From NCBI GenBank assembly GCA_964469505.1, contig CAYXZO010000003.1, forward strand, positions 820-64,819: a stretch of 64,000 nt of DNA. Reading direction: 5' to 3'. The position numbers were made by a program, and so were the translations under genes. The notes beneath the pieces were generated by a model. That model ran no database searches, was not told the DNA's origin, and saw only the letters and a program-made list of their open reading frames with translations. Source of the stretch: an uncultured Lentisphaeria bacterium (GTDB taxonomy: Bacteria > Fidelibacterota > UBA8477 > JABMPR01). The stretch's first letter is position 1; each line of letters opens with the position of its first letter. This document shows positions 28,641 to 55,197 of this stretch, piece by piece.

Positions 28641-29222
28641 TTATGCTAGCTGGGCCAAACTGAGCAGCCCACCCACAACCAAGGGTATCATAACATTATC
28701 ATTTATGGGCCACCGCTTAGCCTCAACAATGGTACCTGCCCCGGCCGCCAAAGCCGCCATCCACCATTGAATGTCAGGAAAACATATTAAGATCAGGAAT
28801 GCAGTAACGAAGAAGGCTAAACTGCCTTCCAGTGTTTTGTCCAAAAAGGCGCGCTTCCCCCAGGGGATGCCCACCAAGGCGGCTGCCGAATCAGCTATTG
28901 AAAGCACTAGAAGCGAAGCTACTGCTATCATTTTAGGAAACAAGAAGGTCGTCAATAAAGCTCCTAGGAATACATACGTGGCACCCGTGACATTCTCCGT
29001 CTCAATATTTCGGATTGCCCCCCCGAAGAATCGGAGGAACCATTGCTGCACCTGAGGATACCGGAGACGGAGATATTCCACAGTGGTAAACCCAGTGGTG
29101 ATCAATACCAGCCCAAAAACCATCAATCCGCGCCTCAAGAACAAGAGATATATCAAAGGAATAGCTGACGAGGCCAGATGGATTCCCTTGCGGATTAGCT
29201 CGTTGCTACCAAGCTTACCCAT
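28641..29222 (-). CDS. Integral membrane protein, polyprenol/diacylglycerol-kinase-like (DUF92-type); function uncertain
   Basis: 193 aa with about 5 TM helices and a KGIH motif. Confidence 0.3.
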   Translation of the reverse strand: MGKLGSNELIRKGIHLASSAIPLIYLLFLRRGLMVFGLVLITTGFTTVEYLRLRYPQVQQWFLRFFGGAIRNIETENVTGATYVFLGALLTTFLFPKMIAVASLLVLSIADSAAALVGIPWGKRAFLDKTLEGSLAFFVTAFLILICFPDIQWWMAALAAGAGTIVEAKRWPINDNVMIPLVVGGLLSLAQLA

Positions 29223-39926: not shown

Positions 39927-41447
39927 CTACTTTTCCTGGGCGCCTGGCAAGATGAGGGTGAAAGTAGTTCCCTTTCCAGGAGTAGAATCCACGGTGATTT
40001 TGCCGTGGTGATATTCCTCGACGATGCGCTTCACTAGACTTAAGCCTAATCCCCATCCACGGCGTTTAGTGCTCCACCCCGGCCGAAATATATTAGTCCG
40101 GTCCCGTGGTGCTATGCCCCGCCCCGTGTCAGAAACCTGGAGTATTACCTTCCCATTACTGCGCCGGGCAGTAATTTTAATCTTACCATCCTGGCTTTCG
40201 ATGGCATCTACCGCATTCTTCAAGAGGTTCTCCAGAGCCCAGCTCAATAATTCAGCGTTTATTAGCGCCTGAAGGCCCTTTTCCACATGAACACCGATTT
40301 CCAAGCTCTTCCCCCATTGTGGAGCTCGTTTGCGAATGTATTCCACCACTGGCCGAATCACGGAATCCAGAGGTAAGGGTATCAGGGTAACTCCCGCTCC
40401 GATGCGTGAAAAGCGCTCCGCAACTTTATTCAAACGCTCCGTATCCCGCTTGATCTCCGTTACCGCTTCAGCCACATCCGGCGCCAGATCCTTGCGCTCC
40501 AACAATTCGATCCACCCTAAAAGAGAAGAAAGAGGGGTTCCTAACTGGTGGGCGGTTTCTTTGGAAAGTCCAACCCACAATCCCCGTTGCTCAGCCATTC
40601 TGATGAATTGAAAACCAGCAAACCCTAATAATATGAATAACGCCACGATTGCTATTTCGATAAAGGGGAACCAGCGCAAGCTTCTGATTAACTCTGAATC
40701 ACCGTAATGAATGAACAACACCGGTTTGCCCTGAAATAGCACCGGCACGGGTTCATTCTGGGCATCCAACCAATGGACTTTTTCCAGAAGAACGGACTGC
40801 GAATCCACCCGCTTCAACTCCGGGATCGTGCTTTCAACCAGTTCCAGAGTATCCTGGGACTCCCGAGTAATAAGCAAGGGGAAGGAAATGTTGCGTACGA
40901 TCTCCCGTAAAACTGCCTCCAGGTTATGTTGCACTACCTCACCATAGTGGAGATACATAATGGGTTTTCCCTGGAATAGAATGGGAATCGGGGTATTGGT
41001 GGAGTCAAGCCGTTTGGCCAATCCCAGGAAATAGTCGTTCTGCTCACCTTTAGTCAGGCCCTGCGGCACCTTGATATTCTTCCAGGCATAGAGCTGCTCG
41101 GCGCCACGTTCCAGTACGGTTATGATCAAAGGGAAATCGATATTCTTGACGATATTGTTAAATACAAAACCGAGGTCAACATTTTCACTGGATAAAGCAT
41201 GGGCATAGAGTTCAGCGCTTTGTTGCAGAAACTTGCGCCGTTCCTCGCGGTACTGGCGGGCTAAAGCGTCGTTAGCCAGAGCATTGGCCAATAATCTGGA
41301 ACTTAAGGCCAGAAAACGTTTATTGTCCTGTCGTAATCGATTGACTAGGTTGTTGGTGTATAATAGGGACCCCAGAATGATGATGGCGGCCAGGAGAAAC
41401 AGCCCCAGCTTAATCCTCGAGCTTGTAAGGACTGTGGATCTCATCAC
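39927..41447 (-). CDS. Sensor histidine kinase (orphan) with duplicated periplasmic module
   Basis: TM, periplasmic region with two similar repeats (IPILFQGKPIMYLHYGE / VPVLFQGKPVLFIHYGD), second TM, H-box (HQLGTPLSSLLGWIELL) and HATPase_c (DTGRGI...GWGLGL). No adjacent response regulator. Confidence 0.8.
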   Translation of the reverse strand: MMRSTVLTSSRIKLGLFLLAAIIILGSLLYTNNLVNRLRQDNKRFLALSSRLLANALANDALARQYREERRKFLQQSAELYAHALSSENVDLGFVFNNIVKNIDFPLIITVLERGAEQLYAWKNIKVPQGLTKGEQNDYFLGLAKRLDSTNTPIPILFQGKPIMYLHYGEVVQHNLEAVLREIVRNISFPLLITRESQDTLELVESTIPELKRVDSQSVLLEKVHWLDAQNEPVPVLFQGKPVLFIHYGDSELIRSLRWFPFIEIAIVALFILLGFAGFQFIRMAEQRGLWVGLSKETAHQLGTPLSSLLGWIELLERKDLAPDVAEAVTEIKRDTERLNKVAERFSRIGAGVTLIPLPLDSVIRPVVEYIRKRAPQWGKSLEIGVHVEKGLQALINAELLSWALENLLKNAVDAIESQDGKIKITARRSNGKVILQVSDTGRGIAPRDRTNIFRPGWSTKRRGWGLGLSLVKRIVEEYHHGKITVDSTPGKGTTFTLILPGAQEK

Positions 41448-43954
41448 TCGGAGTTGCCGGTCCCCTTTCTATACAGATTGAAGCCTGCCAGGCCTGCTAA
41501 AAGCAGCACGATAAGTAAACTGGCACCGGTAATTATAAATCCCGCCCGTACTGCTGGTGGGTTATAGGTGAAAGTGATGGTGTGGCGACCAGCTGGCACG
41601 ATTACCCCCCGCAAAAGAGCATTCGTCTGAAAAATTCTCAACTGAGTGCCGTCTTCCAGTTCAGCATGCCAGCCATTGGGATAATAAATCTCACTTAAGA
41701 CTAAAAATCCCGGGGCCTGACATTGGGTTTCCACTGTGATTTTCTGGAGGTCGACTTTCACATCGAGCACCTTACCTCGTTGGAATTTATGTTGGCGGAA
41801 ATCTTCGTAAGCGGCTGTAACCCATGCTTGAGAGCCAGGATCGTAGGTCTGGGCCAGGTAAAAGGTGGGTTCGGAAACAACTCCCACCGAATCCACAAAC
41901 CAGGCCCGGGGAAAGGCTTCAGTGAAACGATATAAATAGGCTTGAAATGTCTGCCCCCTTGACCAGTGTGATAATGTTTTTTCCAGCTTAAACAACGGCT
42001 CAGGGATTGGATATGGCGAAACCAGATAGCGTACATTAAGCACTTTCAGCCAGAACAAATCTCGTCGACGCAACAAACTATCCACTTCTTCCAGGGTCCG
42101 CGGTCTGACGCCCTGCTCAGTTTGTCGGTAATACTTCAGTAGAAAACCCTGTTCCAGGTCAACCTGTTTCAGAAAATCCTGATAAACCGCCAGTTTAGCC
42201 GGACTGTATCCCCCTATGCTGGCCAGTCCATGAAAAGCCCATTCATTACTGCCAAACAGAGTAAAAACCGGGAAAATGCGCCCTGGAGTTGTTTCCAGCT
42301 GGGACTGCAAGAATTTGACTGTCGGTGAGGGTTGTTCCCAACGTTTGGAGGCAGCAGGGGATACGGCGGTACGGGTCAAACGTAAATCTATTCGCCCCAA
42401 ATCGGCCAGCGCCAACCCGGTGAGGAATACCGCTGCCAGAGCTACTTTTAGCCGTCCCCGCGCCGCAAACCACACCAGGCCAAAGGTGGTGATAGCTAGT
42501 AACAGACTCATGGTCAGTGATTGATAGAAAATCAGGAAACGTTGGCTGTCCAGCCGCGGATCGCTTTTTCCGGAACCAGCCACGGCTGTCTGGAAAGAAT
42601 CCTGGATGGTCCCTTTAAATAACAGCACCAGGATAAATAAGCCTCCGGCGATCCACAATCCCCACTGGAGGGATTTTAGCCACTCCTTAATTTTATCCTG
42701 CCGATCCAGCAGAGCCTGTAATCCGATTCCCGCCAGAATTGCCGCTAACAATTCCACCAGTATTAAAATCATTGACGGAACCCGGAACTTGCTGAAGTAA
42801 GGTAGATAGTTGAAAAACAGGTCATAGACGGGAGAGAAATACTTCCCAAACGAAATTAGAAGTGCTAACACCAGCGCTGAAAAAAGCAGCCATACTTGCC
42901 GCCGCAGGGGTTTATGGAACCAAGCTAAGATCATGAAGAAAAACACTACCACGCCTAAATAGTCCGAATGTTCAGTGAAAGGCCGCGCCCCCCAATAGGT
43001 ATGTCCTCCAAAACCAAACCAGTCGGGGACGACGAAAGCCAGCATTTCTTCTGGGGGAAAAGACCAGTTTGTAGCGTACGAATAACTAAGCCCTTGTGTG
43101 CCTCCTCCGCGGATGGAAAAGTGAGAATAGTTCCAGGCGGGCAAGTACAGCACTGCAGCTAGCCCAAGGGCCAATACTACCGCTGCTGCGAAATAGGCCC
43201 AGCGGAGCCCTAAAGCCCCCCAAGCTTTCTCGCGACCCATCCGAATTGTCTCCCACAGCACATACCAGCCCATGAGCATCCACCCGTAATAGGCAATCTG
43301 CACGTGTCCTCGTTGTAGCTGAAATCCTGCGACGCACGCTAAAAACACCAATCGCAACAGATCGGGTTTGCGGAATAGCTCATGCACCGCCAGTAACAGC
43401 CAGGGCAAATATGCCGCCGTCATCATTTGAGAGCCATGTCCAGCGGTGAGCATTACGACAAAAAAGGGCATCAGCATATAGGCGCCGCCACCCAACAGGC
43501 TCCCCAGAAATCCTATACCCCAGCGACGTAACAGCAGATAAACTCCCATCGCTGCCAGGAGGTAGTGCAAAGCCATTGTCCAGAGGGCTGGGAAACCCAA
43601 CAGACTGAACAGCCGAAGAACCCATCCCGGCATATAAACGAAAGGGGTATACATCAAACTGCCGAAAGAAGGCATACCGCTGAAGATGTATGGTTGCCAC
43701 AGAGGATATTCGTGATGCTCCTGCCAGTATAATTGGAGTTGATAACTCATGCCTCTAGCCGCCGTAGTATCCCCACCGGAAAAAACGTAACCCTTTAGAA
43801 AGACGGCGTTGAAAATAACCACGAGCAAAAGGATGAATATGGCTAAGGCCCGGACCCAATCCCGGCGCCAGATTCTTTGCCAAAGGGTATTGGCTTGTTT
43901 CGACTGATCTGCCGTATGTCCGGTACCATTTCTTTTCACCCCTTTAGGAACCAT
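41444..43954 (-). CDS. YfhO-family polytopic membrane protein (putative membrane glycosyltransferase)
   Basis: 836 aa with about 13 TM helices at the N-terminus and a large C-terminal extracytoplasmic domain. The N-terminal pattern (YVFSGGDTTAARGMSYQLQLYW...PLWQPYIFSGMP) resembles YfhO. Confidence 0.45.
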   Translation of the reverse strand: MVPKGVKRNGTGHTADQSKQANTLWQRIWRRDWVRALAIFILLLVVIFNAVFLKGYVFSGGDTTAARGMSYQLQLYWQEHHEYPLWQPYIFSGMPSFGSLMYTPFVYMPGWVLRLFSLLGFPALWTMALHYLLAAMGVYLLLRRWGIGFLGSLLGGGAYMLMPFFVVMLTAGHGSQMMTAAYLPWLLLAVHELFRKPDLLRLVFLACVAGFQLQRGHVQIAYYGWMLMGWYVLWETIRMGREKAWGALGLRWAYFAAAVVLALGLAAVLYLPAWNYSHFSIRGGGTQGLSYSYATNWSFPPEEMLAFVVPDWFGFGGHTYWGARPFTEHSDYLGVVVFFFMILAWFHKPLRRQVWLLFSALVLALLISFGKYFSPVYDLFFNYLPYFSKFRVPSMILILVELLAAILAGIGLQALLDRQDKIKEWLKSLQWGLWIAGGLFILVLLFKGTIQDSFQTAVAGSGKSDPRLDSQRFLIFYQSLTMSLLLAITTFGLVWFAARGRLKVALAAVFLTGLALADLGRIDLRLTRTAVSPAASKRWEQPSPTVKFLQSQLETTPGRIFPVFTLFGSNEWAFHGLASIGGYSPAKLAVYQDFLKQVDLEQGFLLKYYRQTEQGVRPRTLEEVDSLLRRRDLFWLKVLNVRYLVSPYPIPEPLFKLEKTLSHWSRGQTFQAYLYRFTEAFPRAWFVDSVGVVSEPTFYLAQTYDPGSQAWVTAAYEDFRQHKFQRGKVLDVKVDLQKITVETQCQAPGFLVLSEIYYPNGWHAELEDGTQLRIFQTNALLRGVIVPAGRHTITFTYNPPAVRAGFIITGASLLIVLLLAGLAGFNLYRKGTGNSE

Positions 43955-43974: not shown

Positions 43975-45270
43975 TTAATAATACCCGAGTCCCTTAAGTA
44001 AATGCTCTATGCGATTTTGACCCATAAGTTCTAGATATTTATCGGCTTCCCGTTTGAGCAGCCCAAACTCTGAACCAGGGGATAAACAAAGATTACGCTC
44101 CTCCCGGGGATCCTTTTGCAAATCATAGGCTTCATGATTGCCATGGCCATGGGCGATCCATTTGAAACGACCATCGAATACACTGACCTGATCGTGGCGG
44201 AAAGGATCACCCGCCACCGGATCCAACTTATCGAGGCCAGCTAGAATTTCCACGGGTGTCTTCAGAAAAGCCAGTGCCAAGTTCCTTTTAGGCAAGAAAT
44301 TGGTACCATCAATCATATACTGCTTTACGGCTGGGAAGAGATCCTGATGTTGGATTAAATCCTTTACGGTTTCCCCTTTAGTTTGGGCTGGGAAATGCCA
44401 TAGTAGTGGAACATGCAATACTTCCTGGTATAAATTGAAAACATGGTGGAAATGATTATGCTCTCCCAGCAATTCCCCATGATCAGCCGTAATAATAACA
44501 ATTCCCTCGTTCCAGAACCATTCAACCAGCGGGAGCTGGAAAAGCTCTTCCAAACCATCGACCAAATCACTTATCTCCGCCTGATACAACTGCCGTAAGA
44601 TTTCCCAAACACCAGGAGCTAAAGTTCTTCCTTCCACATAGAAGTTGCGCCAGTCGTGATTTATTCGTTGTGCTTGCCGCCATTGATCTTCGCGGCTGGT
44701 ATTGAGGATCATCCTTTCCTTTTCAGGAGAAGGGCTGTATGGAGTATGGGGGCCGGTGAACTGAAGGAAAAGAAACAGACGACTTTTTATAAGCTGTTCC
44801 CCCAGGCCCCGCAGTATTTTTACTGTTTCAGTGAAGATCCTCTGCCCGGGAAGGATAATTCGCTCAAATCGCAACTCCTGTGATTGCTCGCTGAATTTTT
44901 CGGTGTCGCTCCATATTTCATAAAATTCATCAAACCCGCTATTCAAACCGGTGATGTTTCCCAGCAAAGGATTGGAAGCGATGCCGATATTGGTATAACC
45001 CTGCTCTTTTAGAAAGTTCATCAACGTTGATTTCGAATCAGTGAGTATGAGATGGCCCTCTTCAACTTGGTGTTCCGGGGGGATTAAGCCTGTGAACATG
45101 GAAGCGTGGCTGGGCGGAGTCCAGGGTGAGGGTGTATAGGCCTGTGTAAAAACATAACTTGTCTTGGCTAATCTGCCCAGGAACAAGTGTTGCGCTTTTC
45201 CGGTAGGGGAAAAAAGGGCGTCAAACCGGGTGGCGTCTAAGGAAATGAGAAGTATCGGTGGGTACTGCAT
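43975..45270 (-). CDS. Sulfatase-like hydrolase/transferase (alkaline-phosphatase superfamily); lacks the canonical C-x-P-x-R formylglycine motif
   Basis: Metal-binding N-terminus LISLDATRFD and a C-terminal ITADHGELLGEH motif. Cys is replaced by Trp and Arg by Ser at the sulfatase signature (PWTPPSHAS). Confidence 0.6.
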   Translation of the reverse strand: MQYPPILLISLDATRFDALFSPTGKAQHLFLGRLAKTSYVFTQAYTPSPWTPPSHASMFTGLIPPEHQVEEGHLILTDSKSTLMNFLKEQGYTNIGIASNPLLGNITGLNSGFDEFYEIWSDTEKFSEQSQELRFERIILPGQRIFTETVKILRGLGEQLIKSRLFLFLQFTGPHTPYSPSPEKERMILNTSREDQWRQAQRINHDWRNFYVEGRTLAPGVWEILRQLYQAEISDLVDGLEELFQLPLVEWFWNEGIVIITADHGELLGEHNHFHHVFNLYQEVLHVPLLWHFPAQTKGETVKDLIQHQDLFPAVKQYMIDGTNFLPKRNLALAFLKTPVEILAGLDKLDPVAGDPFRHDQVSVFDGRFKWIAHGHGNHEAYDLQKDPREERNLCLSPGSEFGLLKREADKYLELMGQNRIEHLLKGLGYY

Positions 45271-45309
45271 GGTGCTGGTTACGTTCAGCTAAGCTTCAAC
45301 CAACAAGTT

Positions 45310-46647
45310 TTAGCCTGTCTGTCGCCAATCCCGATAAATGGCTTTTGCAAGATCAACCCCCATTTTCCCGGGCCAGATCGGGCGCCACCAGGGCAAACCT
45401 GCTAAGTGCTGAAAGAGGAAAAGTTTGATAATCAAGCTTAAAGTATATGAGAGGCTGGTAGCCCAGGCAGCCCCATTGATTCCATATAAAGGAATCCACC
45501 ACAGATTTGCGCCTATATTTACTACTACCGTAAAAAGCCCAACCCAGAAATTGAGCTCCGGCCGGCCCCGGGCGGCCAAATCATTGGCTAAAACCCTACC
45601 TAGACTGCTGGCGGTTATTCCGGGAAGTAAATAAATAAGGGCAGTAGCGGAGAGTATATACTTTGTTCCAAATAATCCCCTTACCAGCGGGTGCGCAAGG
45701 AGAGCTAGCGCTATTGCAGCCAGTAAAGAAGCTAAGAAAGTAAACCCTCCGACTATGGCGGTGAGTCTCCCTTGCTCGGCTTTTACAGAATGTAGTTCAG
45801 CTAGCCGGGGAAATAGAGCGGTACTCACTGATTGAGACAAAAGCCAGAGCTTCTCTCCAATTTGAACAGCTACGATATATAGTCCTGCCGATGAAACTCC
45901 TGCCAGCATATTTACCAGTAGTAAATCGAGACGATAGTTCAGGAAGCCGATAATATTCCCCAGGTGACTTTTCCAAGCATAAGACAATAGCCGGCCCCAG
46001 GTAACGTCTCGTGGAGACGTCTCAGAACTGATTCTTTCCTGCTTGATTCTATGGATATACCAAATTGCTAGTAGCACTCCACCTAACTGACCAATGGTAA
46101 AAGCAGCCAGAGCCATTGCCGGGGAGGTTGTCACAAATGTCAACAAAATCCAGGCAGCCAATAACGCGACAGGAGGAAAAACCAAAAATACCAGATTGAA
46201 CCGCCACAGATCCCTAATCCCCAGCAAAATGTTAGGTAACAATTCCAGCAGGAGCAAAATCGGAAAAATAACCACACTGAAGATCAACAGATCTACTTCA
46301 ATTGACGGGAACAAGGTTTCGTGAAAGATGACCCCAATAATTCCTACCCCCCAGCCACCTATTGAAAGCACACCCCAAGCAAGCAAAGTTTTCTTTATAG
46401 CTGTCAGGAGGCTTAAATCTTTCTTAGCCAGGTGATACACTAGTGAAGGTCCCAGTCCCAAGTTCAACAATTTTGTCAACAATTGGGGTATTAACAGAGC
46501 CACACCGTATTCGCCATAGCCTGCTTTACCCAACCAGCGGGCCAACAAGATCGTATAGGCCAGCGATAAAACGGTAACCACAACCTGGCGAGCAAAAGTC
46601 CCAGAAATTTGAACCGTTAAAGGGCGCTTTGTAGAAATGATAGTCAA
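45310..46647 (-). CDS. Polysaccharide flippase (MOP/Wzx-like), 12-14 TM
   Basis: 445-aa polytopic membrane protein with a MATE-like / polysaccharide biosynthesis protein pattern. Confidence 0.7.
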   Translation of the reverse strand: MTIISTKRPLTVQISGTFARQVVVTVLSLAYTILLARWLGKAGYGEYGVALLIPQLLTKLLNLGLGPSLVYHLAKKDLSLLTAIKKTLLAWGVLSIGGWGVGIIGVIFHETLFPSIEVDLLIFSVVIFPILLLLELLPNILLGIRDLWRFNLVFLVFPPVALLAAWILLTFVTTSPAMALAAFTIGQLGGVLLAIWYIHRIKQERISSETSPRDVTWGRLLSYAWKSHLGNIIGFLNYRLDLLLVNMLAGVSSAGLYIVAVQIGEKLWLLSQSVSTALFPRLAELHSVKAEQGRLTAIVGGFTFLASLLAAIALALLAHPLVRGLFGTKYILSATALIYLLPGITASSLGRVLANDLAARGRPELNFWVGLFTVVVNIGANLWWIPLYGINGAAWATSLSYTLSLIIKLFLFQHLAGLPWWRPIWPGKMGVDLAKAIYRDWRQTG

Positions 46648-46656
46648 AATCGTACT

Positions 46657-47817
46657 CTATCCATTGAGTAAAATATCATAAAATTTAATTAGCCTAGAGA
46701 TGACCACTCTTTCACCGAAATGATCAAGAGCATATTTACGAATTGCTTTAAAATCGTATTTATTATATCTGCCGTACATTGTAACCATTGCTTTTGCCAA
46801 TTCGTCCGGATTATCACGTGGAACAAGAATCCCCGTTTCAGGATTAATGAATTCTTCCGGTCCGCCACTACGAGTGGCTATGACCGGTCGCCCCCTAGCC
46901 ATGGCCTCGATCAAAGTCACTCCAAAAGTTTCCGTACGGCTGCTGGAGATAACCACATTGTGGTTGTCCATCAATTCGAGTGCCGATATTCGGTTATCAG
47001 TTAAAAATGTTACGTCTTTGCTAAGATTTAATTTCACGCAAAGATTCTTGAGCGATGTTTCTTCCTGTCCCCATCCGGCTATTGTAAGTTTGGTTCCCTC
47101 GGGTAACGATTTTCTGGCCATAGCAAAAGCTTTCAGTAGAACGTCAAAACCCTTTATCGATCGCAGGTGGCCTATTGATAAAAACCTAAAGTTATCCGAA
47201 GGTGTATCAGACATAAATATAGTCTCGAATTCCTCACCGATAATATTCGGCAAAACATCCCAGTTGTTTTTCTCCAAATTAAACCGGCGTAGGATGCCAT
47301 TCATTAAAAACCTGCTCACAGCAAGGTTTAAATCAGAGGACATGAACACCTTTTTCGAAAGAATTTTATGCCACGGTGCCAGATCTCCTACAATCATGCG
47401 CGAGGAGTGCTCAGTTAACATTAAAGGCAATTTTAGATCTTTTTTAAGGCTCCTCCCCAGCACTCCCGCATACAATGTGGCGTGAGCATGGATCAGATCC
47501 GGCAAACCGAATTGTTCAATATATCTTTTGGCCAACTTTTTTCCGGCAAGTGTTAGGGTAAGGGCTGTCCCCCCCGGGACAAAAGTCAACCGATTAATCT
47601 GCTTTTGTTGGAAAAGTCGAGGATCACTAGCGCCAACTTCACGTTCAGTGTCGCCTTGATTATTTACCTCACCTTTATTCTGCAGATCGACATGGACGAC
47701 TCCAACCTCTATTCCATTTTTTCGAAGAGCCTCAACCTGTCTTTTAATGAAAATACCCTTAATAGGATTATTTATGCTGGGATACCACGAGGCTACAATG
47801 AGTATATGCACGTTCAA
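46657..47817 (-). CDS. Glycosyltransferase family 4 (GT-B)
   Basis: C-terminal motif ETFGVTLIEAMARGRPVIATRSGGPEEFI. Lies in the ~40% GC segment. Confidence 0.8.
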   Translation of the reverse strand: MNVHILIVASWYPSINNPIKGIFIKRQVEALRKNGIEVGVVHVDLQNKGEVNNQGDTEREVGASDPRLFQQKQINRLTFVPGGTALTLTLAGKKLAKRYIEQFGLPDLIHAHATLYAGVLGRSLKKDLKLPLMLTEHSSRMIVGDLAPWHKILSKKVFMSSDLNLAVSRFLMNGILRRFNLEKNNWDVLPNIIGEEFETIFMSDTPSDNFRFLSIGHLRSIKGFDVLLKAFAMARKSLPEGTKLTIAGWGQEETSLKNLCVKLNLSKDVTFLTDNRISALELMDNHNVVISSSRTETFGVTLIEAMARGRPVIATRSGGPEEFINPETGILVPRDNPDELAKAMVTMYGRYNKYDFKAIRKYALDHFGERVVISRLIKFYDILLNG

Positions 47818-48833
47818 CCCCGTTTAAGTAAAACGCGGTTGGCGATATAAGCTTTCAACCCCTCCCTTCGAACTCGTCGCCAGGGGCTGCTTTCAGGCTG
47901 TTCCACCTTATAATCAAAAGTTATTAAGGCTGATTTCAGATGCCTATTAATCAATTCCACTTCCAGAGCAGTAATCTCCTGTTGCCACGCTTTCAAACGT
48001 GCTTTACTGATACCAGTAAAAGTATTCCCGGTAACGCTGTTACCTCCCCAAGCATTGCCTAAAAAAGTTGGTTGAAGTAAAGTGGAGTGAAATTGTATCC
48101 CGGCCTGTTCCGCTAACTTATGCAATATTTCTTCCGGTTTAGTAACTAAATCTTCATATTTCACAACGAAGTAGTCATCCAAACTATATTTATTTTCCTC
48201 AGCAAAGAAATATGACCATTGGAGAGATCTCAAGATTTTATCGAGGTGAGGAAACCCTTTATCCATAGTTTGAAGGTATTTTCTTAATGTCACCAGATTA
48301 GCATAAGGGTTGCGGATAACATGAAAAAAAACAGCCTCAGGGTAGAGCTTCTTTAATCTTGCGGCGTGCTCAAAAGTACCCACCGTTTTTTCTACTACCC
48401 GCATATGTTCGGGCATCTGCGCATTGAACAAAGCCTGATATAGGGCCTCGAAATATCCGCGTATTAAGTTACTATCATCTGTCGATTCGATACTTTCGAT
48501 AGCTTTTTTGAATAGTTCTAAATTAAAAATCCCCTTGGCATCGCTATCGGCTAGCTTATTACCAATGCGATTCCTGACTTCAACCCATTCACATGCACTC
48601 CTGCGAAATACATTTATATCCCAATCCGATATCTTTTCCCAACTTCGTAAGGGATACCTAGTCCACCAATTAAGAATAAAATGAAATTGAGTCTCTATGG
48701 GCAAAACGAACAGCTCCGGGTGCCCATCGAACAAAGAACGTAATAAGCTGGTGCCGGATTTATGAGCACCGGAAATGAAAATAGGACGCCACATTGTCTT
48801 ATTCTTTTTAGTGTTCGTTTGTGTTCCCATCAT
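47814..48833 (-). CDS. Sulfotransferase (PAPS-dependent family)
   Basis: 5'-PSB motif PIFISGAHKSGTSLL plus a downstream 3'-PB-like region. The start probably overlaps the upstream stop as ATGA at 48833. Low-GC segment. Confidence 0.7.
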   Translation of the reverse strand: MMGTQTNTKKNKTMWRPIFISGAHKSGTSLLRSLFDGHPELFVLPIETQFHFILNWWTRYPLRSWEKISDWDINVFRRSACEWVEVRNRIGNKLADSDAKGIFNLELFKKAIESIESTDDSNLIRGYFEALYQALFNAQMPEHMRVVEKTVGTFEHAARLKKLYPEAVFFHVIRNPYANLVTLRKYLQTMDKGFPHLDKILRSLQWSYFFAEENKYSLDDYFVVKYEDLVTKPEEILHKLAEQAGIQFHSTLLQPTFLGNAWGGNSVTGNTFTGISKARLKAWQQEITALEVELINRHLKSALITFDYKVEQPESSPWRRVRREGLKAYIANRVLLKRG

Positions 48834-49951
48834 CCTTTTCCGATATGTTCCGCCAATATAATTTCCATCCTGCGTGCCACTTCGTTCCAATCGTACTGCT
48901 TAGCAAAAAGCTGAGGCTGTGGTTTTCGTTCATCTGATATCGCTTTATTGATCTTATTGATAAATTCTTCATGGGTAGATGCCACATAAATTATCTTTTC
49001 CAGCCTGGAAATCGCTTGGGAAAAGTCGAGGGATACCACTGGGGTGCCAGCTGCTATATATTCGTAGAGTTTATTAGGGTTAAGCACAGCTGTCAATTCA
49101 TCCTTCCTGAAGGGCAATAGAGCTACGTTGAAAGCTTGCACCCATGCCGGTAATTCACTATGGGGTTTGGGCCCCAGATATTTGACATTTTGACGCTCTA
49201 GGACATTTCTAAACTGATCCCGGCGTTCAGTATTGATAAAAGGTCCAATCAAAACCAGGGTAGCGGCTTTGAAACTGTCCGCTACCAATTCCAACAAATT
49301 CTCATCTAACCAGTCCATGGCGCCGGCATAACCCAATATGGGTTTAGGCCATTCCTTTATTTCGCTCGGATTAGGTTTTTGTTGGGCAAACAGGTCATAA
49401 TTAACTCCATTGCCTAACAAGATAGGGCTTTTGAATCCCAGCCGCTGCACCTTAACCCCCAGTTCATCACTTACAACAAATACCAGATCGGCGAATTTTA
49501 AATATCGAACAAGGTACTGCTTAAGCCAGGTAGGAGTATGGGGAAAGGCTAAATGGTCATCGTTGCAATCATAAAATTTAACTTTCGCCGGCAAGCGCGC
49601 CGCCAGCGGTCCCCAATATGCGTTGCTGAGCCCGATAACCCGTTCCGGGGTGTGGAAACCAGTAATCCTTAATATGAATTTAAGCCACAACCAGCCAATA
49701 AGTTGTGTCAGGATTTGCACTAATCTTAAATCCTGCATCAATCGTAGAGGACCGGAAGGTATTGTTTTCAGAAATGGAATCGTAACAACGACGATGTTAC
49801 CTCTACGAACCGGCAACAAATGCATTTGTTTCCCGACGACATAAGGTTCAATGAACAAAATCCGCCAATGAGCCGAGAACCTGGACAATATCTGTTGCTT
49901 GCGAGTAACTAAATAATCCCACCGGATTTCGGAAAACCAGACTAGTTTCAA
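48830..49951 (-). CDS. Glycosyltransferase (GT-B, GT4-like)
   Basis: 373 aa with a GT-B C-terminal pattern (NVALLPF...EYIAAGTPVVS). Confidence 0.55.
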   Translation of the reverse strand: MKLVWFSEIRWDYLVTRKQQILSRFSAHWRILFIEPYVVGKQMHLLPVRRGNIVVVTIPFLKTIPSGPLRLMQDLRLVQILTQLIGWLWLKFILRITGFHTPERVIGLSNAYWGPLAARLPAKVKFYDCNDDHLAFPHTPTWLKQYLVRYLKFADLVFVVSDELGVKVQRLGFKSPILLGNGVNYDLFAQQKPNPSEIKEWPKPILGYAGAMDWLDENLLELVADSFKAATLVLIGPFINTERRDQFRNVLERQNVKYLGPKPHSELPAWVQAFNVALLPFRKDELTAVLNPNKLYEYIAAGTPVVSLDFSQAISRLEKIIYVASTHEEFINKINKAISDERKPQPQLFAKQYDWNEVARRMEIILAEHIGKG

Positions 49952-50811
49952 CTGGATGACCTTTTGAGTTTCATAATTATCAAAAGTCCTAAGTAATACA
50001 AAAACAAAACACCTTGACTAAATATTAGGACCGGCCACTGATACCAGCGCACCCAACGGCGATACAGCTTAAATATACCTTTGGCTTTACGCTTAATTTT
50101 TTTCCATGAAAAAGCATGACCGAAAGATGCTGAAACTTTATGATAAATCTTCGATTGGGGAACATAGTACAACCGATACCCTGCCCTTTTTAAACGAAGA
50201 GATAAATCAACGTCTTCTCCATACATAGAAAAGTTCTCATCAAAGCCTCCCAGGTCTTTAGCCAGGGGGAAAGGCATGGCAATACAGCACCCTGTTAGAT
50301 AATCGGTTTCTTCGGCTTCATCAATATCATCGGTGTCAATCGCCCTCAGCCGTTTATGGCCGATATATCCGGTCCACAAGTTTACCTGCCCCCCGCCATA
50401 CCAAATTCGATTGCTGCCGGCGTACAAAATCTTAGGAGCAACAGCTCCAGCTTCGGGTAATTGTCGTAGGGCCCTCACCAAAGGGTCAAGAAAATCAGCC
50501 TGCACTTCGGTATCATTGTTGAGAAACGCAACGTAGTCCGGTGGGGCAATAGTCTCTTCCAACGCACGCAAGCCAGCATTATTTCCCCCGGCAAAGCCCT
50601 TGTTCTCCTTCAATTTGACCCAATTGACGTTGGGAAAGCGTCGCTCATTTTCGGCCACAGAGTCATCGGTTGAGGCATTATCCACTACCCAAATGGTGAA
50701 ACGAGGATATGTGACCGCACTCAGGCTAGCCAGGCAATCTCCCAGCACCCTGGCACCATTCCAATTCAACACTAAAACGGCTACTGAAGGGGTGGTTTCA
50801 GGCGCCGACAA
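49948..50811 (-). CDS. Glycosyltransferase family 2
   Basis: VLVLNWNG...VVDNASTDDS and D.D motifs. 287 aa. Confidence 0.8.
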   Translation of the reverse strand: MSAPETTPSVAVLVLNWNGARVLGDCLASLSAVTYPRFTIWVVDNASTDDSVAENERRFPNVNWVKLKENKGFAGGNNAGLRALEETIAPPDYVAFLNNDTEVQADFLDPLVRALRQLPEAGAVAPKILYAGSNRIWYGGGQVNLWTGYIGHKRLRAIDTDDIDEAEETDYLTGCCIAMPFPLAKDLGGFDENFSMYGEDVDLSLRLKRAGYRLYYVPQSKIYHKVSASFGHAFSWKKIKRKAKGIFKLYRRWVRWYQWPVLIFSQGVLFLYYLGLLIIMKLKRSSS

Positions 50812-51925
50812 TGCGTTCCAGTTCCTCCTTAAATCGGTTCACCGTGAATCTCTCTCGCCACTCCTTTACATTAGCCGTGAAATCGACCTGTGCACGGGCT
50901 TCTAAAAAGGACCGCATAGTTTCAGCTAATTTACCCGGGGAGTCAGGAGGCACTAAGTAGCCGGTATGCCCCGGCCTGATATATTCCGCTAACCCACCCA
51001 CTTCAGTAGCAATTACTGGTAACCCCGCCTGGTAGGCAATACCCAAGATGCCGCTCTGAGTAGCCGTTTTATATGGCAAAATCAAAGCATCAGCCGCCGC
51101 GAAAAAGTTTTGGGTCTCAGTGTCACTTGCGAAACGCAGGACTAATCTCACAGTTTCCTTCAATTCATACCTATCAATTAGAGCCTGGTAAGGTTCCCAG
51201 GATTCATACGGCTCCCCTACCACCCATAATTTAAAATCAACCCCTTGGGTTCTAAGCTGGGCCGCGGCTTTCAGCAAAACATCCACCCCTTTGTAAGGTC
51301 GGATGTAGCCGAAAAAGAGGAAAACCGGCAGGTCCTGTGGAATGTCCAGGTTTCGACGGGCCACCGTTTTATCAACCTGCGGCTGGTACAATTCATAAAG
51401 AGGATGGAATAAGACCTGCACTTCCCTCTCCGGTGCTACTGCCTTTATCTCAGTGGCCACTCCCTGAGATAAAGCCACTACGATGTCCATTTCTTTCAGA
51501 ATTCTACGGGCTGCGACACGATCTACGAGCGACTGTTCATGGGGAATTAGATTATCTATTATACCGAGAGTACGCCCCGTCTTTTGTTGATGCAACCGGT
51601 TGGCTACGAATGAAAACACAGGTGCAAAAAAGGGGTTCCAGTAACGGAAAATAGTGAGATCAGGTTGGAAAGCAGCGATGCGGCGGGCAGTAGTATACCA
51701 GCTCAGTGGATTGACTGAATCCAACAGACGATCAGCGGGAAAAATGGGGCGGTCCGCTCTGGGCTTATACTCAGTTTGCCCCGGAAATAGGAACTTTGGA
51801 TATTGTCTTCGGAAGTTCGCGAAATAGAGCTGGTGGTCTTTTTTAAGATGCTGATATAACTGATAGTTGAAATCAGCAATACCACCGCGATACGGCGGAC
51901 CTACGCTGCAGAAAGCTATGCGCAT
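50798..51925 (-). CDS. Glycosyltransferase family 4
   Basis: 375 aa with a GT-B fold pattern (GGIADFNY..., EPYESW..., LPYKTATQSGILGIAYQAGLPVIATEVGGL). Confidence 0.8.
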   Translation of the reverse strand: MRIAFCSVGPPYRGGIADFNYQLYQHLKKDHQLYFANFRRQYPKFLFPGQTEYKPRADRPIFPADRLLDSVNPLSWYTTARRIAAFQPDLTIFRYWNPFFAPVFSFVANRLHQQKTGRTLGIIDNLIPHEQSLVDRVAARRILKEMDIVVALSQGVATEIKAVAPEREVQVLFHPLYELYQPQVDKTVARRNLDIPQDLPVFLFFGYIRPYKGVDVLLKAAAQLRTQGVDFKLWVVGEPYESWEPYQALIDRYELKETVRLVLRFASDTETQNFFAAADALILPYKTATQSGILGIAYQAGLPVIATEVGGLAEYIRPGHTGYLVPPDSPGKLAETMRSFLEARAQVDFTANVKEWRERFTVNRFKEELERIVGA

Positions 51926-51936
51926 GGCTGATTTGC

Positions 51937-52911
51937 TCAGGTGGAAGTGGTACGTGCGTTTGCCTTGGGTTCAGAAGAATTGACTATGTACTCGGGGCGT
52001 TCCCGAATACTTAAGCGCGTTATCATTTCCCCCAACAGGCCCATGGAGAAAAACTGGACTCCCACTATAACCAATAAAATCCCCACGAAGAAAATGGGTC
52101 GGTTGCCGATCCAGGCGCCGGTTCCGAAGAAGTACTGCCGTAACCATTGGATGCCCAGGTAAAACAAAACTCCGCCACCAACAGTTCCCATAAATAACCC
52201 TATCAGGCCAAAAAAATGCAGGGGTTTGCGAAAATATTTGCCGATAAACAACACCGTCAACAAATCAAAAAAACCAGCGAAGAACCGCCACAAGCCGTAC
52301 TTAGTGCGTCCATACTTGCGGGCATGGTGCTTAACCACCTTTTCCCCACAGCGAAAACCTTTCTGAGCAGCCAACACCGGAATGTAGCGATGCAATTCAC
52401 CATAAAGGTGCAAGCTTTTGACTACCTCGCGCCGATAGGCCTTCAAACCGCAGTTAAAATCGTGGAGGGGAATTCCGGTAAGTTTCGCGGTAATGAAATT
52501 GAAAAAACGAGAAGGCCAGCGTTTGGAGATGGGATCATGGCGCTCCTTTTTCCATCCAGAAACCAAATCGTAATCCTGTTTCAACATTTCCAGCAGATAA
52601 GGTATCTCATTGGGGTCATCCTGAAGATCAGCATCCAGGGTCACCACAAAGTCACCTTTGGCCTCCTGGAAACCGATATTCAAGGCAGCGGCTTTACCGT
52701 AGTTCCGGCGGAAATGAATTATCCGCACCCGTGGATCCTCTGCAGCGAGCCCTCTGAGGACTGCTGCTGATGTATCAGTACTACCATCGTTGATGAACAG
52801 AATCTCGATTTCGTAGCTGGAATTGGATAGAGCGAGGGCTATAGCCCGGTAAAGTTCGGGTAACGATTCCGCTTCGTTATAGACTGGAACAACAATGCTC
52901 ACTAAACTCAT
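51937..52911 (-). CDS. Polyprenyl-phosphate glycosyltransferase (GT2, ArnC/DPM1-like) with C-terminal TM helices
   Basis: VSIVVPVYNEAESL and DADLQDDP motifs, with two C-terminal TM helices. 324 aa. Confidence 0.8.
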   Translation of the reverse strand: MSLVSIVVPVYNEAESLPELYRAIALALSNSSYEIEILFINDGSTDTSAAVLRGLAAEDPRVRIIHFRRNYGKAAALNIGFQEAKGDFVVTLDADLQDDPNEIPYLLEMLKQDYDLVSGWKKERHDPISKRWPSRFFNFITAKLTGIPLHDFNCGLKAYRREVVKSLHLYGELHRYIPVLAAQKGFRCGEKVVKHHARKYGRTKYGLWRFFAGFFDLLTVLFIGKYFRKPLHFFGLIGLFMGTVGGGVLFYLGIQWLRQYFFGTGAWIGNRPIFFVGILLVIVGVQFFSMGLLGEMITRLSIRERPEYIVNSSEPKANARTTST

Positions 52912-53660
52912 GGAGTCTCTCCCATGTCACGTAAAGCAACTGGTGGCTGAAATGGTGGCTGCAATTCGGAGTCCCGGTCCAGCATCAACCGGTGCACACC
53001 AACCGACTTCCAGGATAAATAGAATTTCTCTTGCTCTAAAACAAAACTCCCCCCCGCAGGCAAAGTATTTGAGCCCCGGTATTTCCACTGGAGAGTAGCG
53101 GTTACTTTCCTGTCGGGTGAAGTAAATTGCCAGCGGCTATATCTGCCAGGGCTTTCAGACCACAGCTCCTGATTGTCGGTGCACCAGTGATGAGAGCCAC
53201 AAGATTTCCAGGATGTTTCAGACCGGGGAGGCTCAGCCAAAAGCAATAATCGGATCCAGTCCGACCAGGGTATAGTTCCGACAGTACCTAATCTTGCTAT
53301 TTCATCAGCTTCCTCCAATCTCTGCCATGGGTGTCCTACCAATCGGAACCAAATTTTATCAGAATGAAGCATTAACTTGAATTTCCCCATGCCCAGAGGG
53401 CCACTACCTTCTAGCCAGGCCTCTCCATGTCCCAGTGTAGCATTAAACTTACCCTGTCCACTCAATCTGTCGGTATGTATCACAAAAATCCCTCTAATTC
53501 GCCACAGTGAACTCCTTAGCTCAGGCTTAAAAGACGAAGGGTCGCAATCCGTCCCCGCCTGAGGCAGTTGTTTTTGAGAGACGTTAAAAGAACAGGCGGC
53601 AAGCAGAATTCCCAGGAAAAACGCACCCGTGAAACTAAGAAACTTATTCCCTTGCTTCAA
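52908..53660 (-). CDS. Hypothetical lipoprotein (LolB-like size; function unknown)
   Basis: Signal peptide with lipobox (GILLAAC). 250 aa, no catalytic motif. Confidence 0.4.
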   Translation of the reverse strand: MKQGNKFLSFTGAFFLGILLAACSFNVSQKQLPQAGTDCDPSSFKPELRSSLWRIRGIFVIHTDRLSGQGKFNATLGHGEAWLEGSGPLGMGKFKLMLHSDKIWFRLVGHPWQRLEEADEIARLGTVGTIPWSDWIRLLLLAEPPRSETSWKSCGSHHWCTDNQELWSESPGRYSRWQFTSPDRKVTATLQWKYRGSNTLPAGGSFVLEQEKFYLSWKSVGVHRLMLDRDSELQPPFQPPVALRDMGETP

Positions 53661-55197
53661 GGGCTCGGGCCTTCTGGAAATATTGTTCCGCTTCTTTAAC
53701 CTTCCCCAATCGTTCCAACAGCTGGGCTAAATGCCCCAAAACTTCCGCGTTATTTCCATCCAATTTCACTGATGCCCGTAAGTACTTTTCCGCCATGGTG
53801 AAATGTCCCAGTTTGAAATAAATCCAACCCGCCGTATCCAGATAAGCCGGACGCTTGGGCTCAACACTCAAAGCTTCCTGGATCAAGTGGGCTGCAAACA
53901 GCAAAGCTTCTTTGGTGGAGTCATGAACGGCAATCAGGTACGCGTAATTATTCTTGGCCAGATGATCACGAGGATATTGTTCTATGAGCGTCTGATAAGC
54001 CCGTTTAGCACGCTCATAATTGCCGGTTTCATCCGCCAGTAACGCCAGCAAATGCAAACCTTGCTGATCCGTTTCGTTCAGTTTGATCGCTTGTTCCATA
54101 GCCCTGAAGGCCTGTCGTTGCAAACTGGTATCTTTTTTAGCGATGGCCAGGTCCCGCATTAATTGGGCGTTAAGATAGTGGAGATAATAATTATCAGGGA
54201 ATGCCGGTAAATATGCCTGTAAGGTTTCCCACGCTCCCTGGCTATTGCGGAGGTTCATGTATGACCATACCATTAAGGCCACCGCTTGGGCCCTGGAGGG
54301 ATCATTTTCTAACAGCTTTTTTAGAACAACGATCGCACGTTCATAATTTCCAGAGTCAAAGTACAATTGCCCTAACTTCAGCTGCATTTCGGGACTTAAA
54401 CTGCGTTTCTGAGCTAGCTTGCTAAGAAATCTAATCGCAGCTAAAGGGCCATTCATGGTATTCACCAGCTCGGTTTTAAACAACACCAGTGGTTCACTAT
54501 CAGGATTTTTAGCAAAAAGTGAGTCCACCAACCGTACAGCGGTGTCGTATCTGCCCATTGTTATAAGCAATTGAACCCGTCGCTTCAGCAATTCTAAACT
54601 GTTGGGGAAGATTTTGGCTAAACGGTGATATATATCCAGCACTTTGTCCCAACGCCTGAGAGCCAGATAAAGCTTCTCCGCCCGCTGGAGGGGAGCCAGA
54701 CGTTCCTCATCCAACTCCCATAGCACCACCAAGTAATTGGCTTCTTGCAAAGTATCTTTTAGAGCATGGTAGACTTGTACCAATTGAAAAACTGTGCGAG
54801 GATCATCAGAGCGCAGTCGGTATAAACGTTTTAAGAATGGAAGAGCACGCCGGGGTTCGCCCTGGTTGAGCTCCACCAAAGCTTCGAGCGCCTCTTCATA
54901 AGTGGAGTCCAACTGGATGACTTTTAAATAAGCTCTTTCAGCGGCGGTTTTACGATCAAGCTGCTGATAAGCTTTGCCCAAACTGAGGAAAATATCCGGA
55001 GAAGTTGAATCGGCTTTGGCTGCTTCTTCATAGGCTTTGGCTGCTTCTTCCCACCGCTCTTGACTTTCCAACTCCATTCCCCGCATGAATGCATCTAGAG
55101 CTCGTTTTTCAAAATTAGTGGAGTCAGTGGAGACTGAGTGCTGTCCCAATAGTGGGATCCCCAAACAAATCAATAGCACCAGCTTAAACCATTTCAT
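53644..55197 (-). CDS. Secreted TPR-repeat protein
   Basis: Signal peptide plus about 12 TPR units. 517 aa. Confidence 0.7.
   Translation of the reverse strand: MKWFKLVLLICLGIPLLGQHSVSTDSTNFEKRALDAFMRGMELESQERWEEAAKAYEEAAKADSTSPDIFLSLGKAYQQLDRKTAAERAYLKVIQLDSTYEEALEALVELNQGEPRRALPFLKRLYRLRSDDPRTVFQLVQVYHALKDTLQEANYLVVLWELDEERLAPLQRAEKLYLALRRWDKVLDIYHRLAKIFPNSLELLKRRVQLLITMGRYDTAVRLVDSLFAKNPDSEPLVLFKTELVNTMNGPLAAIRFLSKLAQKRSLSPEMQLKLGQLYFDSGNYERAIVVLKKLLENDPSRAQAVALMVWSYMNLRNSQGAWETLQAYLPAFPDNYYLHYLNAQLMRDLAIAKKDTSLQRQAFRAMEQAIKLNETDQQGLHLLALLADETGNYERAKRAYQTLIEQYPRDHLAKNNYAYLIAVHDSTKEALLFAAHLIQEALSVEPKRPAYLDTAGWIYFKLGHFTMAEKYLRASVKLDGNNAEVLGHLAQLLERLGKVKEAEQYFQKARALEARE

Follow-up and report, generated by a model that had tools for sequence, protein, structure and literature searches.

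A predicted sulfated-glycan operon with a variable sulfotransferase module in a Marinimicrobia-related bacterium

A 64-kb stretch of bacterial DNA (64,000 nucleotides of contig CAYXZO010000003.1; hereafter, the window) was found to carry a tightly packed run of minus-strand genes from about nucleotide 55197 to 39927, including genes for glycosyltransferases (GTs), a flippase, and a sulfotransferase. Judging from gene content and from comparison with related loci, this operon of a Marinimicrobia-related bacterium is likely to assemble a sulfated glycan of the cell surface, and to consist of a conserved frame and an exchangeable module. The module comprises a sulfotransferase (SulfoT), a GT4 glycosyltransferase (GT4a), and a Wzx-type flippase, and it is the most AT-rich part of the operon. 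The genes are real, and the operon for a probably sulfated surface glycan is ordinary but real.

The sulfotransferase gene lies at 47814..48833 on the minus strand (the mechanical open reading frame (ORF) is 47814-48890). Its product is a sulfotransferase of the type that uses 3′-phosphoadenosine 5′-phosphosulfate (PAPS), with a Pfam match to Sulfotransfer_3 (PF13469; E = 6e-23) and the sequence element PIFISGAHKSGTS. In an alignment of 22 homologues, the 5′-phosphosulfate-binding loop P-x-F-x-x-G-x-H-K-S-G-[TS]-S-L-x-R, the 3′-phosphate-binding motif R-N-P-Y-x4-[ST]-x-R, and an E-K pair are invariant or nearly so. The loop of the window protein reads P-I-F-I-S-G-A-H-K-S-G-T-S-L-L-R, whose H, K, S, and G are invariant, and its 3′-phosphate motif reads V-I-R-N-P-Y-A-N-L-V-T-L-R, with R-N-P-Y invariant; the Ser position of the latter is Thr in the subclade of the window protein and Ser or Ala in most other homologues. 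Both motifs align with the sulfotransferase (ST) domains of CurM and olefin synthase (OLS) and with human TPST1/2 (the 3′-phosphate-binding counterparts are LVRHPYAVIES in the OLS ST domain and MVRDGRASVHS in TPST1). Thus, the assignment to the PAPS-type sulfotransferases, made earlier from the letters of this DNA alone (the sequence-only reading), stands. An AlphaFold model computed on the family alignment reached a pLDDT of 90.8 and a pTM of 0.89, and the best 50 matches of a Foldseek search against the PDB share the PAP(S) sulfotransferase fold without exception (best E = 2e-8, TM-scores 0.5-0.63, 14-19% identity). Since neither a transmembrane (TM) segment nor a signal peptide was detected in a TM scan, the enzyme should act in the cytoplasm. 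Gene callers proposed either 339 amino acids (start at 48833) or 326 amino acids (start at 48794, MWRPIFISGAHKSGTS). Two of the six single-nucleotide polymorphisms (SNPs) that distinguish the window from another public contig (L180; 14.5 kb compared), at 48810 and 48818, fall in the 36 nucleotides between the stop codon of the upstream TuaH-like gene and Met33. This favours the 326-residue start over the 339-residue start, and suggests that the 36-nucleotide stretch is non-coding and that the start at 48794 is the real one.

What is the company of this gene in other genomes? A homologue search returned 345 relatives at E <= 0.001, the named ones from Halanaerobiales, Bacillales, cyanobacteria (Spirulina and Phormidium), KSB1, and metagenome-assembled genomes (MAGs) of Asgard archaea. 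In all ten loci examined, which represent eight distinct lineages including that of the window, the sulfotransferase gene directly adjoins a GT4 gene and has a gene for a MOP-family flippase within one or two genes; in some of them, it shares start/stop overlaps with its neighbours. The homologue of Halothermothrix orenii also adjoins a GT4 gene, in a locus with Bac_transf, Wzz, Wzx, and Wzy genes. The invariant GT4 neighbour and the presence of the H. orenii homologue in a classical polysaccharide locus indicate a glycan substrate. In two metagenomic loci (L170 and L171), a TuaH-SulfoT-GT4-Wzx block is embedded between cysC, cysD, and cysNC, which provides a link to PAPS. The best inference from a PAPS-type sulfotransferase within a glycan-assembly operon is a sulfated lipid-linked glycan. 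The sequence-only reading had predicted such a product, and the PAPS motifs, the fold, and the operon context back it, the sulfation itself being deduced from them.

Relatives were compared through the genomic surroundings of genes homologous to those for the sulfotransferase and the TuaH-like glycosyltransferase, the only two that gave informative relatives; scans of genomic and metagenomic contigs with the polyprenyl-phosphate GT2 of the operon found nothing closer than 61-62% identity. Several types of loci were distinguished. The window (type A) has the order NhaC-TPR-lipoprotein-GT2-GT4b-GT2b-TuaH-SulfoT-GT4a-Wzx-AlkP-YfhO-HK-rplM, where AlkP denotes an alkaline-phosphatase-superfamily protein and HK a histidine kinase. 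The divergent L177 (type A′) has GT4b-GT2b-TuaH-SulfoT-GT4-Wzx-epimerase-...-YfhO, and its proteins are 43% (GT4b), 50% (GT2b), 49% (TuaH), 43% (SulfoT), 42% (GT4), 44% (Wzx), and 54% (YfhO) identical to those of the window. Type B loci (L175, L176, and L179) share NhaC-TPR-GT2-GT4b-GT2b-TuaH and then continue with a different MOP flippase and other downstream genes; no sulfotransferase was found in these three loci. Downstream of the flippase, L175 and L176 encode a methyltransferase, a hexapeptide acetyltransferase, an amidohydrolase, a PAPS_reduct-family protein, and an acetyltransferase, followed in L175 by an epimerase and YfhO. This alternative decoration set (L175 12465-17773 and L176 12421-17892, including Acetyltransf_9) stands in the place of the sulfotransferase module, and its PAPS_reduct gene is curious in a locus without a sulfotransferase. 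Type C loci (L166, L168, L172, and L173) have the order NhaC-TPR-GT2-GT-GT-YfhO-GT4-SulfoT-GT4-Wzx-epimerase-HK-rplM-rpsI-rpsB-tsf-pyrH(-frr-ahpC). Their identity to the window is 69-70% for S2, 66-71% for Tsf, and about 48-50% for the histidine kinase; among the glycan genes it is 55-56% for GT2, 45-48% for SulfoT, 37-39% for GT4a, 44-49% for Wzx, and 28-30% for YfhO. In L170 and L171, TuaH, SulfoT, GT4, and Wzx occur in the order of the window (49, 44, 37, and 46% identity), while L006 departs right after GT2b with an aminotransferase and a DUF6206 gene.

Two comparisons are especially telling. L177 and L175 are close relatives, with 82% identity in YfhO and 70% in TuaH, yet they are wholly different between TuaH and the epimerase, and their flippases are non-homologous. 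L170 is a mosaic of a B-type TuaH (58-60% identical to those of L175-L177) and a module that is nearer to type C (51-59%). These cases argue for replacement of the inner module within a conserved frame. Together, the loci indicate that the exchangeable unit is SulfoT-GT4a-Wzx (45310-48833), which related lineages carry or replace. The flippase (45310..46647, minus strand; 445 amino acids; Pfam Polysacc_synt, MurJ, and Polysacc_synt_3; at least eight TM segments in a crude hydropathy scan) is 44-49% identical to the flippases that adjoin SulfoT-GT4 in L166-L173, L170, and L177; it has no detectable similarity to its positional counterparts in L175 and L179 (E = 0.5 for the B-type protein). GT4a (46657..47817, minus strand; cytoplasmic; Pfam Glycos_transf_1 and Glyco_transf_4) is 37-41% identical to the GT4 directly downstream of SulfoT in every sulfotransferase-bearing relative. 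The TuaH-like glycosyltransferase (48830..49951, minus strand; GT-B fold, 373 amino acids; NCBIfam TuaH E = 2e-28, Pfam Glyco_trans_1_4) is 49-51% identical to its orthologues in L175, L176, L177, L179, and L170. Since it is a frame gene in L175, L176, L177, and L179, it lies outside the module. The sequence-only reading had proposed a serotype-variable cassette of GT4, SulfoT, and GT (46657-49951). Its core idea survives in that related lineages with a common chromosomal frame differ in their genes where the GC is low, but the borders have to be redrawn to SulfoT-GT4a-Wzx.

The base composition of the window was then compared with these borders. The mean G+C content (GC) is 49.6%, with a standard deviation of 2.9 points among 1-kb windows. 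The lowest 1-kb window (48001-49000) has 39.9%, the lowest 300-nt window has 37%, and the 15 lowest 1-kb windows of the 64 kb all begin within 45751-49501. The tract of lowered GC extends over 45750..50300 (40-46% in 500-nt windows) and is centred on the sulfotransferase and GT4a. By gene, the values are 41.1-41.3% for SulfoT (depending on the start chosen; the lowest of all genes in the window), 42.2% for GT4a, 44.2% for the TuaH-like gene, and 46.6-46.8% for the flippase, AlkP, and GT2b genes; the neighbours have 48-51%. The sequence-only reading had counted 33-40% against about 55% in the flanks, whose genes in fact have 47-51%. The profile is indeed not uniform, and the dip over the GT4a, SulfoT, and TuaH-like genes is real and beyond chance, but it amounts to about 6-9 points rather than 15-20 and had been overstated about two-fold. 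The GC expected from the amino acids of each protein under the codon usage of the other genes in the window was used for correction. The corrected deficits are z = -3.3 for SulfoT, -2.5 for GT4a, -2.1 for Wzx, -2.0 for the TuaH-like gene, -1.6 for GT2b, and -0.8 for AlkP. Of the roughly 9 points by which SulfoT falls short, about 4 are due to the amino acids of the protein and about 5 to the choice among synonymous codons. The deficit at synonymous sites is also seen in the GC of third codon positions (GC3), at 0.40-0.42 versus 0.52 +/- 0.04. The module of L177 is also AT-richer (36-39% versus 43-47% for its frame), and likewise that of L170.

The operon as a whole was delimited as follows. 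All ORFs of the glycan locus lie on the minus strand in one direction, at the same coordinates as in the sequence-only reading, and neighbouring genes overlap by 4-17 nt or stand 9-39 nt apart. The co-directional, overlapping arrangement described there is thus borne out, as are its family assignments by Pfam and NCBIfam; its "sulfatase-like transferase" is discussed below. Eight genes were counted in 43975-52911, not nine, and its own list also names eight. The tight packing extends upstream into a lipoprotein gene and a TPR gene and downstream into the YfhO-family gene and the histidine kinase gene; the whole is best read as a single operon on the minus strand, from the TPR and lipoprotein genes through the histidine kinase gene. 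A scan for consensus promoters and terminators gave site counts at or below those of shuffled sequence, so that internal transcription units were not definable by it.

The first glycan gene of the operon (51937..52911, minus strand) encodes a polyprenyl-phosphate GT2 of the ArnC/GtrB/CsbB type (Pfam Glycos_transf_2, 135 bits; NCBIfam ArnC 5e-64 and PgfS 7e-44, both under the equivalog cut-offs). It has two C-terminal TM helices in residues 236-293 and is 55-62% identical in all related loci. It is followed by GT4b (50798..51925, minus strand; Pfam), a frame gene that follows the polyprenyl-phosphate GT2 in several phyla and is 36-46% identical in L006, L175, L176, L177, and L179. The next frame gene, GT2b (49948..50811, minus strand; Pfam; one C-terminal TM segment in the TM scan), is 44-50% identical in the same five loci. 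Upstream, the predicted lipoprotein (52908..53660, minus strand; lipobox LAAC) is weakly LolB-like by a weak NCBIfam match, and its gene overlaps its neighbours by 4 and 17 nt; at this position, L179 has a LolB-family gene and L006 has an ORF of similar size. The TPR-repeat protein (53644..55197, minus strand; Pfam; N-terminal hydrophobic segment) is a conserved upstream neighbour of the glycan genes and is syntenic in L006, L166-L173, L175, L176, and L179 with 26-40% identity.

At the other end, the YfhO-family protein (41444..43954, minus strand; 836 amino acids) resembles GT-C enzymes, with about ten N-terminal TM segments, a soluble domain of about 280 amino acids, and a C-terminal TM segment, about 11 in total. 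Its match to PF09586 (38.5 bits, cutoff 28.5) is limited to the C-terminal 90 residues, while its L166-L173 orthologues match the YfhO family strongly; it is 51-54% identical to the YfhO proteins of L175 and L177, and a sequence search of the PDB gave no match. The last gene of the operon (39927..41447, minus strand) encodes a histidine kinase with HisKA and HATPase_c domains (Pfam) and two predicted TM segments, and overlaps the YfhO gene by 4 nt. It is syntenic in relatives; an HK-rplM-rpsI-rpsB-tsf neighbourhood is common to L166, L168, L172, and L173, with 48-50% identity of the kinase. The sequence-only reading had regarded YfhO and the kinase as flanks. They are not mere flanks: since the pairing of GT2 and YfhO recurs in loci of Eisenbacteria, Calditrichota, Latescibacterota, and others, and given the 4-nt overlap and the synteny of the kinase gene, both belong to the operon. 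Candidatus Eisenbacteria and unclassified MAGs share a collinear locus (L039 and L042 10000-20900; also L034, L035, L037, and L041) in the order polyprenyl-P GT2 - GT4 - GT2 - NPP-type AlkP - GT9 - NPP-type AlkP - MOP flippase - YfhO. Thus, several phyla have the GT2...YfhO frame, in every case together with a MOP flippase and an enzyme of the AlkP superfamily.

The AlkP gene of the window (43975..45270, minus strand) encodes a soluble protein of 431 amino acids that matches the Pfam family Sulfatase with 85.6 bits. The label "sulfatase-like transferase" is right about the family, but the TM scan revealed neither a membrane anchor nor a signal sequence, and the nucleophile motif is W-T51-P-P-S-H55 in place of C/S-x-P-x-R. 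In alignments with the PDB entries 7oz8 (a choline-sulfatase) and 4upi, T51 takes the formylglycine position and H55 the Arg position. Because Thr and His replace the formylglycine motif, the protein is not a canonical sulfatase. In an alignment of 150 sequences (the query and its best 149 representatives), Thr occupies the nucleophile column in 143 and His the Arg column in 134, and a HMMER search of 1.84 billion representatives gave a single relative above 35% identity. Many homologues bear N-terminal extensions of about 200 residues, whereas the window protein is without the N-terminal membrane domain of many homologues and of LtaS/EptA-type transferases. By its sequence, it is a member of a large uncharacterized Thr-nucleophile branch of the alkaline-phosphatase superfamily, for which no function was found. 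The subfamily (P0248-P0396) is very large, and shares the motif W-T-[LVP]-P-S-H-A-S-[ML]-F-T-G-L with its Thr nucleophile and His for Arg. A transferase activity is possible. Two roles were ruled out: a sulfation/desulfation pair with the sulfotransferase, as the formylglycine motif is absent, and an LtaS/EptA-like membrane transferase, as there is no TM segment.

How might these proteins work together? I infer the acceptor, the identities of the sugars, the order of the steps, the supply of PAPS, and the actual sulfation only from the genes. Four cytoplasmic glycosyltransferases (GT4b, GT2b, the TuaH-like enzyme, and GT4a) would assemble an oligosaccharide on the cytoplasmic side of the membrane, with polyprenyl phosphate as its carrier. 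One residue would be O-sulfated by the soluble sulfotransferase with cytoplasmic PAPS before export, and the MOP/Wzx flippase would export the sulfated unit. MOP flippases export lipid-linked oligosaccharides. In a separate branch, the ArnC/GtrB-like GT2 would make a polyprenyl-monophosphate sugar, and on the periplasmic side the YfhO-family GT-C enzyme would attach the sugar to the glycan or a different acceptor, or else transfer the product to the acceptor. The Thr-nucleophile AlkP-family enzyme probably handles a phosphoester. It is known that GtrB/CsbB-type enzymes make polyprenyl-monophosphate sugars, which GT-Cs such as YfhO pass to glycopolymers outside the membrane (PMC8035078, PMC5836110, PMC11127046).

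Several observations weigh against this picture. No initiating phosphoglycosyltransferase, Wzy, chain-length regulator, outer-membrane exporter, or O-antigen ligase was found in the locus or its relatives: Wzy_C, Wzz, Poly_export, Bac_transf, and Glycos_transf_4 were absent from the 53 window ORFs scanned with Pfam and from the related loci, although such genes could lie elsewhere in the genome. No GtrA-type small flippase was found among the scanned window ORFs, a scan that was not exhaustive for ORFs of <150 amino acids outside the locus, and no PAPS-synthesis genes (cysC/cysDN/sat) lie in the 64-kb window. A glycan is ascribed to the sulfotransferase as its substrate from context. It is very unlikely, however, that the enzyme acts on protein tyrosine, a lipid, or a small molecule and that its position in the operon is incidental. 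Its nearest solved structures are indeed polyketide (CurM/OLS) and tyrosylprotein sulfotransferases, and JGI labels several homologues "protein-tyrosine sulfotransferase", but the structural likeness is at the level of the fold only (TM-scores of 0.5-0.6 at 14-19% identity) and the JGI names are automated, whereas the gene sits beside a GT4 and near a MOP flippase in 10/10 loci. As for the module, about 40% of the GC deficit is due to amino-acid composition and not to codon choice, and the type C lineage has no GC dip over the same module, which has the GC of its flanks in the L166 clade. Composition alone is therefore no proof of foreign origin. One may suppose that no exchange took place, that the whole locus, with the sulfotransferase block, descended vertically and some lineages lost or replaced it, and that the low GC reflects proteins rich in Lys, Asn, Ile, and Phe together with weak selection on codons where expression is low. 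As this explanation would have it, the identities between the window and L177 are alike for frame (43-54%) and module (41-45%), and glycan loci generally have more AT than the genomes around them; the share of about 4 points in 9 that amino-acid composition contributes to the sulfotransferase deficit also fits. Nevertheless, I regard it as unlikely: the GC3 shift is not explained by protein composition, and neither the complete difference of the inner genes between L177 and L175 nor the mosaic of L170 agrees with it.

At the other extreme, the horizontally acquired cassette of the sequence-only reading could be taken to mean that GT4-SulfoT-GT is a recent low-GC island from a distant donor that gives strain-level (serotype) variation. 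The tract has the lowest GC in the window, its codon-level deficit survives the amino-acid correction, and the sulfotransferase family is patchy across phyla, all of which would suit an island; still, such an origin appears quite improbable. The best homologues of the sulfotransferase and of the adjacent glycosyltransferases are 43-51% identical, none exceeding 49-51%, and come from the same Marinimicrobia/FCB neighbourhood, many of them at the orthologous chromosomal position; no distant donor emerged from this check of taxonomic origin. The window module is at most 49% identical to any known copy, and its divergence from L177, which shows the same arrangement, is about equal to that of the frame. 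The TuaH-like gene, a part of the proposed island, is present as a frame gene in lineages without the sulfotransferase. No tRNA, Rfam family, or significant direct or inverted repeat was found at the borders (the only tRNAs of the window are at 4.8 and 22.3 kb), and no integrase, insertion sequence, or transposase domain among the scanned ORFs; the sliding identity of the TuaH-like gene to L175, L176, and L170 showed no switch that would mark an internal recombination breakpoint. Finally, six public contigs from different samples carry the locus with the same genes and represent one population (L001-L005 are 100% and L180 is 99.96% identical, with 6 SNPs in 14.5 kb). There is no sign of a recent event in the lineage of the window, and the exchange appears to be old. 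What these loci demonstrate is variation among lineages at the genus or family level, not among strains of a single species.

A more far-reaching idea may be mentioned, to which I give only a small chance. The frame of GtrB-like GT2 - GT4 - GT2 ... MOP flippase - YfhO might be a self-contained en-bloc pathway conserved across phyla of the FCB group. This is conceivable because neither here nor in the loci of Marinimicrobia, Eisenbacteria, Calditrichota, and Latescibacterota does the frame ever contain a phosphoglycosyltransferase, a polymerase, or a ligase. The GtrB-like enzyme would prime with a polyprenyl-monophosphate sugar, the soluble glycosyltransferases would extend it, the sulfotransferase would sulfate it, and the MOP protein would flip it, after which the YfhO-type GT-C would transfer the whole oligosaccharide to a protein or envelope acceptor. 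If this were true, bacteria would have an equivalent of the dolichyl-monophosphate route to N-glycans in archaea, in which sulfated sugars also occur, and the pathway would provide a candidate for the unidentified oligosaccharyltransferase of general glycosylation in the FCB group.

The host was assessed from the rest of the window, which is bacterial chromosome with housekeeping genes (rplM-rpsI-rpsB-tsf-pyrH-frr, def-fmt-rsmB, gatB, and der) and encodes Omp28 as well as a C-terminal sorting domain of the type IX secretion system (T9SS). Among genomes, the polyprenyl-phosphate GT2 has its best match in a Candidatus Marinimicrobia MAG (L006, 61%) in which 12 genes upstream are syntenic, and the top named matches of the TuaH-like glycosyltransferase are Candidatus Marinimicrobia, "FCB group", and Chlorobi. 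By these sequence matches, the host is a Marinimicrobia-related (FCB-group) diderm. A few other loci of the window deserve mention. A selenocysteine tRNA (anticodon TCA) was detected at 4837-4927 on the minus strand by ARAGORN and Rfam (72 bits), which implies a selenoprotein system; no selA, selB, or selD was seen among its scanned neighbours. At 22497-25217 (minus strand), a 906-residue protein combines multihaem cytochrome c domains (c7, c554, and c3) with FlgD-Ig and a T9SS C-terminal sorting domain; it is possibly secreted or surface-attached and involved in extracellular electron transfer. A tight trio at 11702-15631 (minus strand) encodes a SerA-like dehydrogenase with an ACT domain, a class-V aminotransferase, and a DUF1015 protein, apparently for serine biosynthesis with an uncharacterized partner. 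Two ORFs had no Pfam match at E <= 1e-5: one of 522 amino acids in the der/DUF512 operon (18415-19983, plus strand) and one of 193 amino acids beside a BatA-like gene (28641-29222, minus strand).

If the reading of the operon as one for a sulfated surface glycan is correct, Marinimicrobia-like bacteria, a marine group that is abundant and uncultured, have a PAPS-type sulfotransferase as a stable part of their envelope-glycan operon. The genetic characterization of bacterial sulfated glycans has so far been almost confined to cyanobacteria, and the authors of the synechan work and a 2026 study of Actinoplanes still call bacterial sulfated polysaccharides essentially cyanobacterial (PMC8205485, PMC13390465). 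A literature search for Marinimicrobia and sulfotransferase found nothing specific. The three-gene module of sulfotransferase, GT4, and matching flippase may be a portable unit for the glyco-engineering of sulfated oligosaccharides, and may also serve as a genomic marker to predict which uncultured bacteria supply sulfated polymers to marine organic matter.

By its parts list, the closest published analogue is a putative cluster for a sulfated glycosaminoglycan-like exopolymer in Pontiella sulfatireligans F21 of the Kiritimatiellota, strains of which make sulfated exopolymers (PMC7356697). Like the window, it has GT2s and GT4s, a TuaB/MOP flippase, a sulfotransferase gene (one of the PF13469 genes of the strain), yfhO, and an undecaprenyl-phosphate hexosyl/mannosyltransferase GT2 (PMC7356697). 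In contrast, Pontiella belongs to a PVC phylum and not to the FCB group, and its cluster also has a methyltransferase, a VioA transaminase, gmd, and gtrA; the window locus has neither GtrA nor genes for sugar-nucleotide modification but has the Thr-nucleophile AlkP enzyme in addition. Both clusters are putative by their genes. The only genetically dissected bacterial system for a sulfated exopolysaccharide is the synechan (xss) cluster of Synechocystis PCC 6803, which uses a Wzx/Wzy-dependent route (PMC8205485). It is similar in that sulfotransferases are found among glycosyltransferases and Wzx, sulfation is proposed to occur on the lipid-linked repeat unit, and a two-component sensor is nearby. 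On the other hand, the xss cluster is plasmid-borne and has Wzy, a polysaccharide co-polymerase, and a priming glycosyltransferase, whereas the window locus is without these and has the GtrB-like GT2 and YfhO.

The GT2 and YfhO of the operon resemble the experimentally established three-component systems of a CsbB/GtrB GT2, a GtrA/GtcA flippase, and a YfhO/GT-C enzyme (PMC8035078, PMC5836110, PMC11127046), in that a two-helix GT2 and a multi-TM YfhO with a large extracytoplasmic domain are encoded in one operon. However, the characterized YfhO systems decorate teichoic acids of Gram-positive bacteria, while the organism of the window is an FCB diderm by its T9SS and Omp28 markers; there is no GtrA-family flippase in the locus, and four glycosyltransferases, the MOP flippase, and the sulfotransferase lie between the GT2 and YfhO. 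O-antigen and capsule loci have a conserved frame, variable AT-rich central genes, and a serotype-specific Wzx. The window locus differs from them in that its variation lies between genus- or family-level lineages and in the absence of Wzy, Wzz, and WaaL, but it is like them in its kept flanks and replaced inner genes, in a flippase that co-varies with the modifying enzymes, in its lower GC, and in having no initiating transferase in the locus. Known themes are thus extended rather than overturned by this surface-glycan operon with its modifying sulfotransferase and its modular, variable centre.

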